64,000 nucleotides of DNA from Escherichia coli. Lineage in GTDB: Bacteria > Pseudomonadota > Gammaproteobacteria > Enterobacterales > Enterobacteriaceae. Of this stretch, positions 50,819-51,013 are shown one piece after another (the stretch's first letter is position 1; the number at the start of each line of letters is the position of its first letter). A model generated the notes under the pieces. That model searched no databases. It was not told the origin of the DNA and worked only from the letters and a program-made list of their open reading frames with translations. The stretch is from assembly GCF_003334405.1 (NCBI RefSeq), contig NZ_QOWM01000001.1; one strand, given 5' to 3'. Both the position numbers and the translations under genes were made by a program.

Positions 50819-51013
50819 TTACAGCAACTGGTGAGGGCTGGCATAAGTTGCCGGTGTTTCGGTAGAGTCACGGTCATCCACCACGCGGAGTGAATAACCG
50901 TTTTCAGCGGCCTTATTAATCAGTTCAGTGATATTAACACCATCAATGTCAACGACAATGTGCCCCATATCCAGCGCCTGTACGTTAACGCTGTCGGCTT
51001 CCAGTGTCATCAT
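50819..51013 (-). CDS. Hypothetical 64-aa protein
   Basis: ORF with strong SD (GGAGGCGAAATGATG); no family recognised. Confidence 0.3.
   Translation of the reverse strand: MMTLEADSVNVQALDMGHIVVDIDGVNITELINKAAENGYSLRVVDDRDSTETPATYASPHQLL

Follow-up and report, generated by a model that had tools for sequence, protein, structure and literature searches.

The open reading frame at 50819..51013, on the minus strand of a 64,000-nucleotide stretch of Escherichia coli DNA (the whole of it hereafter called the window), is yeeW, which closes the yeeRST-cbeA-cbtA-yeeW operon of the cryptic prophage CP4-44, in exactly the allele carried by K-12. It is a truncated DUF5983 gene that encodes only the N-terminal domain and a disordered linker, the C-terminal domain having been lost. 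We regard it as probably a decayed relic of a DUF5983 gene, most likely without function in the window. The gene is already catalogued, annotated and widespread in E. coli, though uncharacterized, and its occurrence here is nothing novel.

The reading frame and its product comprise the following features:

50819..51013, minus strand: yeeW, given in the ORF listing with an ATG start and 64 amino acids counted from the first ATG.
51018..51022, minus strand: the Shine-Dalgarno sequence GGAGG of yeeW, read from the sequence, four nucleotides (N4) from the first ATG and seven (N7) from the second.
Residues 1-47 of YeeW, minus strand: the DUF5983 N-terminal domain, from homology and an AF2 model.
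Residues 48-64 of YeeW, minus strand: a linker-like tail, predicted by the AF2 model to be disordered.

The frame opens on two ATG codons (51013..51011 and 51010..51008) and closes on TAA (50819-50821). Alignment of related elements identifies the second ATG as the start homologous to that of the family, from which the product counts 63 amino acids. The original prediction had quoted the translation of the 64-aa frame exactly and had named no strand, which is minus. It had also given the translation signals as GGAGG-N6-ATG; the GGAGG and the ATG are both there, but the spacing is N4 or N7, depending on the start. The Shine-Dalgarno sequence is embedded in the final codons of cbtA. On the minus strand, the sequence 5′ of yeeW reads CCGGAGGCGAAATGATG, and the Shine-Dalgarno context CCGGAGGCGAAA recurs in related E. 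coli elements. The C-terminal peptide of the product is DSTETPATYASPHQLL.

Comparison with K-12 settles the identity of the frame. It matches yeeW (b2006, 2077940-2078134) at 195 of 195 nucleotides and 64 of 64 amino acids, and positions 51140..49401 of the window are collinear with K-12 2077813..2079552 (99.5% identity over 1740 nt). The two genomes share the same order at the right end of CP4-44: the cbtA 3′ end, yeeW, a DUF957 remnant, yoeD, yoeF, tmaR/yeeX and yeeA. The small CP4-44 genes that K-12 has at this place had been pointed out beforehand; the ORF is itself one of them. A megablast search with the surrounding 1.1 kb returned identical loci in complete E. coli genomes, where RefSeq labels the gene 'yeeW: DUF5983 family protein' (WP_000988600.1) and annotates its flanks as a cbtA fragment, a DUF957 fragment, a transposase fragment, an EutP/PduV fragment (yoeF), tmaR (yeeX), yeeA, sbmC, dacD and sbcB. 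The chromosomal position, at the CP4-44 right end beside yoeF-tmaR-yeeA-sbmC-dacD-sbcB, is that of K-12. The exact protein is YEEW_ECOLI in UniRef/UniProt and occurs on at least 1000 contigs. A 2024 survey of the y-ome places yeeW among the uncharacterized CP4-44 genes (PMC11551758), and its assignment to the yeeRST-cbeA-cbtA-yeeW operon appears in a published table (PMC7660256). K-12 resembles the window in its downstream neighbours and in the 4-nt overlap with the cbtA stop, but retains intact cbtA, cbeA, yeeT, yeeS, yeeR and flu upstream, whereas the window keeps only the last ~131 nt of cbtA.

The gene is also common. While the original prediction had allowed that the ORF might show no conservation in related genomes, our search found it at a minimum of 99% identity in 3123 complete E. 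coli records. Of 5426 complete E. coli genomes, 4065 (~75%) had a match spanning at least 80% of the yeeW query, and the DUF5983 C domain was found in 3901 genomes. All told, complete E. coli genomes hold ~12,500 DUF5983-like places, with a median of 2 per genome and a maximum of 10.

The protein, which the original prediction had been unable to place, belongs to the family that its RefSeq label names: residues 1-54 match Pfam DUF5983_N (PF25638) with E = 2.3e-29, over model positions 1-56 of 56. No Pfam match to the DUF5983 C-terminal domain (PF19419) was found past residue 54. The length of the frame by itself is no proof of a gene, since the 5 kb around yeeW contain or overlap 61 ORFs of 30 aa or more; it is the Pfam match, together with complete nucleotide identity to K-12 yeeW, that lifts the frame above chance. 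Among 1.84 billion proteins, YeeW has 104 representative relatives (50% identity level, E ≤ 0.001), and all but a few repeat-protein matches come from the same Enterobacterales family. By this measure, the family is a narrow one.

Intact members of the family are larger than YeeW. A search with a 162-aa copy gave 1102 clusters; among the matches listed, the best were nearly all 162 aa long and carried both PF25638 and PF19419. Scanning one genome per species, we obtained 30 loci, 26 of which encode full-length DUF5983 (158-168 aa), from sources including Escherichia albertii, Salmonella, Citrobacter, Klebsiella, Enterobacter, Trabulsiella, Yokenella, Hafnia, Serratia, Erwinia, Rouxiella, Cedecea and Buttiauxella. 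Gene order is conserved across the Enterobacterales: a RadC-like JAB gene, DUF987 (YeeT), the CbeA antitoxin, the CbtA toxin, DUF5983, often DUF957, and DUF4942. In 30 of the 36 loci compared, the toxin stop and the DUF5983 start codon, which may be ATG, GTG or TTG, have an overlap of 4 nt; in a further two the overlap is 1 nt. This overlap is strong evidence that translation of the two genes is coupled. Among full-length copies, the N domain has a Nei-Gojobori omega of 0.16 and the C domain one of 0.18, values that mark full-length DUF5983 as a real protein on which purifying selection acts.

YeeW shares with these full-length proteins (PF25638 plus PF19419; also named Aec77 or L0008-like; ~162 aa) a homologous N-terminal stretch of ~47 residues, and its gene shares with theirs the position directly after a CbtA-family toxin gene, stop and start overlapping. 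Over that stretch, identity to the full-length relatives in alignment A3 is 43-82%, a range that leaves out the 67-aa short allele in the final row, at 88%. It differs from them in lacking the C-terminal domain (residues ~67-162, PF19419, phrog_5003), the KLAL codons and several invariant residues. As to the CbtA/CbeA (YeeV/YeeU) type IV toxin-antitoxin module, yeeW resembles a component in being translationally coupled to the toxin gene. The DUF5983 N domain, by contrast, showed no relationship to the antitoxin CbeA or to YeeT in hhalign comparisons with each, and in the window the toxin gene is truncated and the antitoxin gene absent. In a genomic survey of toxin-antitoxin systems, DUF5983 was scored as a 'partner' that recurs downstream of CbtA (PMC10790755), and a 2026 preprint mentions DUF5983 beside cbtA/cbeA in discussing an AntiFam entry (10.64898/2026.06.09.728211); neither includes experiments on DUF5983. 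Our best guess for the role of intact DUF5983 is that of an accessory partner to the CbtA/CbeA module, synthesized in concert with the toxin.

These comparisons bear on whether yeeW could be neither gene nor remnant, but a frame open by chance behind a coincidental GGAGG. The abundance of short ORFs around it would suit such an origin, as would the loss of a promoter context of its own, but the Pfam match, the 104 representative relatives, the low omega of the homologous N domain in full-length genes and the conserved position and coupling to cbtA all speak the other way. Homology and selection refute a chance origin, to which we attach next to no probability.

Several further observations were made on the wider gene block. 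TTG and GTG starts of DUF5983 occur in several genera (L024 and L030-L035: Winslowiella, Trabulsiella, Rouxiella, Erwinia, Cedecea and others), with the overlap kept as TTGA or GTGA. DUF4942, the downstream gene of intact elements (L004 4770-5636), matches phrog_6263, which is annotated as a DNA methyltransferase (E = 3e-20). The block of antirestriction, RadC-like, DUF987, CbeA, CbtA, DUF5983, DUF957 and DUF4942 genes resembles an establishment or anti-restriction set of integrative elements. Some E. coli- or Citrobacter-like contigs that bear the module are filed under MAGs or assemblies labeled Segatella copri, Lachnospiraceae, Collinsella and Chryseobacterium sp. 18061 (L007, L008, L010-L012 and L028-L029), most likely through binning errors or contamination.

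Set against its intact relatives, yeeW is a short allele that has been damaged twice and is incomplete for its family. DNA homology between the window and full-length loci runs from the cbtA 3′ end to DUF5983 codon ~47 (51140..50873) and then resumes inside DUF957. In the short alleles the C domain is replaced by a ~75-nt segment encoding RD[AST]TETPAT[SY]ASPHQL; the encoded residues resemble the linker, but no DNA homologue of the segment was detected in full-length loci. The K-12/window allele has in addition a 12-nt deletion that removes KLAL from the conserved MKLALTLEAD start. The deviations of yeeW at conserved columns are the loss of K2 and an N-to-D change, both at columns conserved in 28 of 28 relatives, an R/K-to-H change where all 28 relatives have a basic residue, and a V-to-A change at a column conserved in 26 of the 28. 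The original prediction had raised the prospect that the ORF is an internal fragment of a larger disrupted gene. A fragment of a larger gene it is, corresponding to the N-terminal third of a ~162-aa protein, and not to an internal piece.

Downstream of the yeeW stop, the window contains two further features of the damaged element:

50693..50809, minus strand: the DUF957 remnant, a 38-codon ORF (MMQGIVPLTTETAL followed by LSCIKQAREDV...HQNR), annotated by PGAP as DUF957, incomplete.
50630..50662, minus strand: a terminator-like hairpin, CGCCAGC-N9-GCTGGCG and then TTTTCATTTA, from sequence reading and alignment.

The DUF957 remnant lies in the frame of yeeW, separated from it by the TAA and three more codons, and, compared with intact copies of DUF957, has lost 87 nt from its interior without a change of frame. 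The hairpin (7-bp stem, 9-nt loop, T-run) stands between DUF957 and DUF4942 and is kept in all aligned elements; it was not listed by the consensus terminator scan, which covers loops of 3-8 nt.

In the E. coli strains ETEC4070 and A0 34/86, the corresponding region is an uninterrupted 140-codon ORF (L006 3988-4410 and L039 1488-1910) made up of the DUF5983 N domain, the short-allele linker and a complete DUF957. These DUF5983_N::DUF957 alleles are like yeeW in their N domain, their allele-specific linker and the loss of the C domain. Unlike yeeW, they continue in frame across an intact DUF957 (140 aa) and lie inside intact cbeA-cbtA modules, whereas the window allele has the TAA stop and a DUF957 with the 87-nt deletion. 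The codon at the end of the short allele is TAA in L037, L007, L038, K-12 and the window, with products of 67 or 64 aa, as against GAA in L006/L039. The fusion in L006/L039 may relate to the fused-or-separate DUF5983/ANF00264 annotations mentioned in the 2026 preprint (10.64898/2026.06.09.728211).

On one account of this arrangement, a nonsense mutation together with a deletion inside the gene broke an ancestral 140-aa DUF5983_N::DUF957 gene into yeeW and the 38-codon ORF. Such a gene exists uninterrupted in L006 and L039; the DUF957 remnant continues the yeeW frame, with the yeeW TAA aligning to the GAA of those two loci; and read-through fusions in the databases (P0001, P0003, P0038 and P0117) join the same two pieces. 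Yet PGAP separates L006/L039 into a 'partial DUF5983' pseudogene and a DUF957 gene with its own start, L037 combines the TAA with an intact DUF957, so that fusion-first and stop-first both fit, and the ~75-nt segment could not be matched at the DNA level to full-length loci. We hold a split fusion gene to be very improbable. It is in any case a sharper version of the reading of yeeW as a relic, which it does not contradict.

The damage extends to the surroundings of yeeW in the window:

51010..51140, minus strand: the cbtA 3′ remnant (last ~131 nt), collinear with K-12 2077813-2077943 and annotated by PGAP as incomplete, missing the N-terminus.
51133..51137, no strand assigned: a deletion junction with 5-nt microhomology, from comparison with strain NCCP12480.
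51133..51192, plus strand: the 3′ end of a zinc-ribbon-domain gene, 99.3% identical to the REL606 locus (L040) from position 3907, where the CDS spans 3559-3966.
51479..53098, plus strand: an ISL3-family transposase pseudogene with an internal stop, reading away from yeeW, from PGAP annotation of an identical stretch in strain DLI.5a.
50022..50378, minus strand: yoeF, an EutP/PduV-family fragment and the next gene remnant downstream of yeeW.
50267-50404, plus strand: a yoeD-like transposase fragment that overlaps yoeF.

What had been described as a region otherwise free of genes thus holds the 3′ fragment of cbtA, the DUF957 fragment, the transposase fragment, yoeF and the ISL3 pseudogene. The TGA stop of cbtA (51012..51010) overlaps the first ATG of yeeW by 4 nt (ATGA). 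Strain NCCP12480 retains cbtA at full length, though frameshifted, along with a fragment of cbeA; compared with it, the window is missing 601 bp that comprise the 5′ two-thirds of cbtA, the cbeA fragment and part of the zinc-ribbon gene. In the alignment at this deletion, window 50400-51137 corresponds to L002 6001-6738 and window 51133-51700 to L002 7339-7907. The zinc-ribbon 3′ end abuts the cbtA remnant and is antisense to it. Intact cbtA and cbeA are absent from the window locus, where homology to K-12 ends at 51140. A different and larger deletion is found in E. coli B REL606, in which yeeW is gone at the same site; the site is a series of nested deletions.

The ISL3 pseudogene contains ORFs at 51478-52221 and 52182-52853 and is followed by a frameshifted gamma-glutamyltransferase fragment (~53137-53470); together, the two replace most of CP4-44 (flu, yeeR, yeeS, yeeT and cbeA) in the window strain. 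Beyond them, positions 53505-57550 form a small metabolic islet that K-12 lacks at the same position, with labels from identical loci for a phosphotriesterase-related protein, a DMT transporter (pseudogene), a glutamine amidotransferase and a PfkB carbohydrate kinase.

A crude consensus scan of the minus strand from 51013 to 51700 found no sigma-70-like site, though read-through transcription may reach the gene. From the state of the locus, we infer that yeeW in the window is probably unexpressed or weakly expressed, without a function of its own. Rfam and tRNA scans returned nothing at the yeeW locus. Elsewhere in the window, Rfam/ARAGORN scans gave RNA matches in keeping with the his / O-antigen / asn-tRNA stretch of an E. 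coli chromosome:

38808-38931, minus strand: His operon leader.
41670-41744, plus strand: sRNA STnc240.
16526-16564, plus strand: JUMPstart element.
6791-6840, plus strand: algC RNA motif.
63031-63106, minus strand: tRNA-Asn(GTT).

We also considered whether the short protein could act by itself. AF2 modeling of YeeW from a 29-sequence N-domain alignment gave a best model with a mean pLDDT of 73.6, the other four of five models reaching 53-58. The best model has strands at residues 8-13 and 19-24 and a helix at 28-37, with pLDDT of 74-89 over residues 1-47 and below 50 in the tail. Among short alleles, pairwise omega is mostly 0.45-1.08 and below 1 in most pairs, values that are suggestive only, as they rest on few substitutions and are probably confounded by recombination among paralogous elements. 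They are compatible with relaxed constraint, which they do not prove. Per site, the N domain shows slightly fewer amino-acid variants (0.55) than the tail (0.82), and this and the omega values below 1 are weak hints of residual constraint. The allele also varies in nature. P0086, recorded as 'MULTISPECIES: DUF5983 family protein [Enterobacteriaceae]' and found on 429 contigs, is a yeeW allele with a 15-nt in-frame deletion that removes NITEL at the start of the helix; further variants have frameshifted tails or replacements at family-invariant residues. The short allele also occurs inside modules with intact cbeA, cbtA, DUF957 and DUF4942 (L037; also L006 and L039).

That YeeW is a functional stand-alone small protein, its N domain being autonomous without the C domain and acting, for example, by binding CbtA-family toxins or partners in trans, is the chief rival to the relic reading, to our minds unlikely though worth weighing. 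On this view, even with its own cbtA ruined, it would be retained for the sake of paralogous CbtA modules elsewhere in the genome. N-only alleles in otherwise intact modules, as in L037, mean that an N-domain-only product is at least tolerated and could therefore be functional, and the in-frame fusions to DUF957 in L006 and L039 suggest that the N domain is modular. A working protein would also be in keeping with the presence of the short allele in about three-quarters of complete E. coli genomes, its intact Shine-Dalgarno sequence and start codon, the compact beta-hairpin and helix of the best model, the omega values below 1, and the multiple DUF5983-like places per genome. Against this, the K-12/window allele has lost KLAL and changed residues that are invariant in 28 of 28 relatives, common natural alleles delete five core residues or replace invariant ones, and four of the five AF2 models have a mean pLDDT of only 53-58. 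Prevalence is accounted for by vertical inheritance at one site next to yoeF-tmaR-yeeA. In the window, moreover, the upstream operon is deleted and no promoter-like site is left. The literature searched contains no report of an experimental function of YeeW, nor of DUF5983 or YeeW acting on CbtA, CbeA, FtsZ or MreB.

Structure and profile searches returned no relatives outside the family. Foldseek found nothing for the YeeW model in the PDB (best E = 1.9) and only same-family members in AFDB50, some of them misnamed 'malate transporter'. A full-length DUF5983 model from a shallow alignment had a mean pLDDT of 56.7 (N domain 23-54) and likewise found nothing in the PDB (best E = 2.3), and a profile search of PDB sequences gave nothing below E = 0.5. 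PADLOC had no match for YeeW, full-length DUF5983, DUF957 or DUF4942, and PHROGs returned only families of unknown function, the DUF5983 C domain matching phrog_5003. An NCBIfam hit naming archaeal ribosomal protein P1, below threshold (E = 0.11; 12.9 bits where the cutoff is 100), was rejected as compositional; one JGI record of YeeW bears this spurious name. Also set aside as relatives, as probably compositional or repeat-inflated, were P0148, P0176 and P0181, long tandem-repeat proteins in which 5-17 stretches match YeeW (e.g., ATIDAQDMTDLIAEIDGTKVTALEL versus VNVQALDMGHIVVDIDGVNITELI, with TVTDDRDSTET repeated).

On the reading that we favor, yeeW is probably a decayed relic. The gene is normally a full-length, two-domain DUF5983 of ~162 aa, translated in coupling with a CbtA-family toxin. 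The yeeW allele has lost the C domain and kept the N domain of ~47 residues plus the linker; its sister alleles run on into DUF957 to give 140 aa, with a change from GAA to TAA putatively ending the K-12/window allele at 64 aa. Loss of the KLAL codons and changes at family-invariant residues have eroded the K-12/window allele further. In the window, the cbtA frame that holds the yeeW Shine-Dalgarno sequence is down to 131 nt, cbeA and the upstream operon genes are gone, and the scan found no promoter-like site upstream. Vertical inheritance next to yoeF-tmaR-yeeA would probably explain why yeeW persists.

A broader proposal is that the ~47-residue DUF5983 N domain is an autonomous, portable module, found alone, with DUF5983_C or with DUF957, and that orphan YeeW acts in trans on CbtA-family modules. 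We think this distinctly doubtful; if true, it would add a third, so far unrecognised, component to type IV toxin-antitoxin systems.

As a discovery, the ORF carries little weight, being an annotated K-12 gene of the uncharacterized y-ome. The useful gain is a clearer description of yeeW as a damaged DUF5983 allele, here also without its toxin partner and operon. Anyone wishing to know what other components the CbtA/CbeA module has might reasonably turn to full-length DUF5983, which is coupled to CbtA, spread across the Enterobacterales and held by purifying selection; for that question the full-length copy serves better than the yeeW locus.
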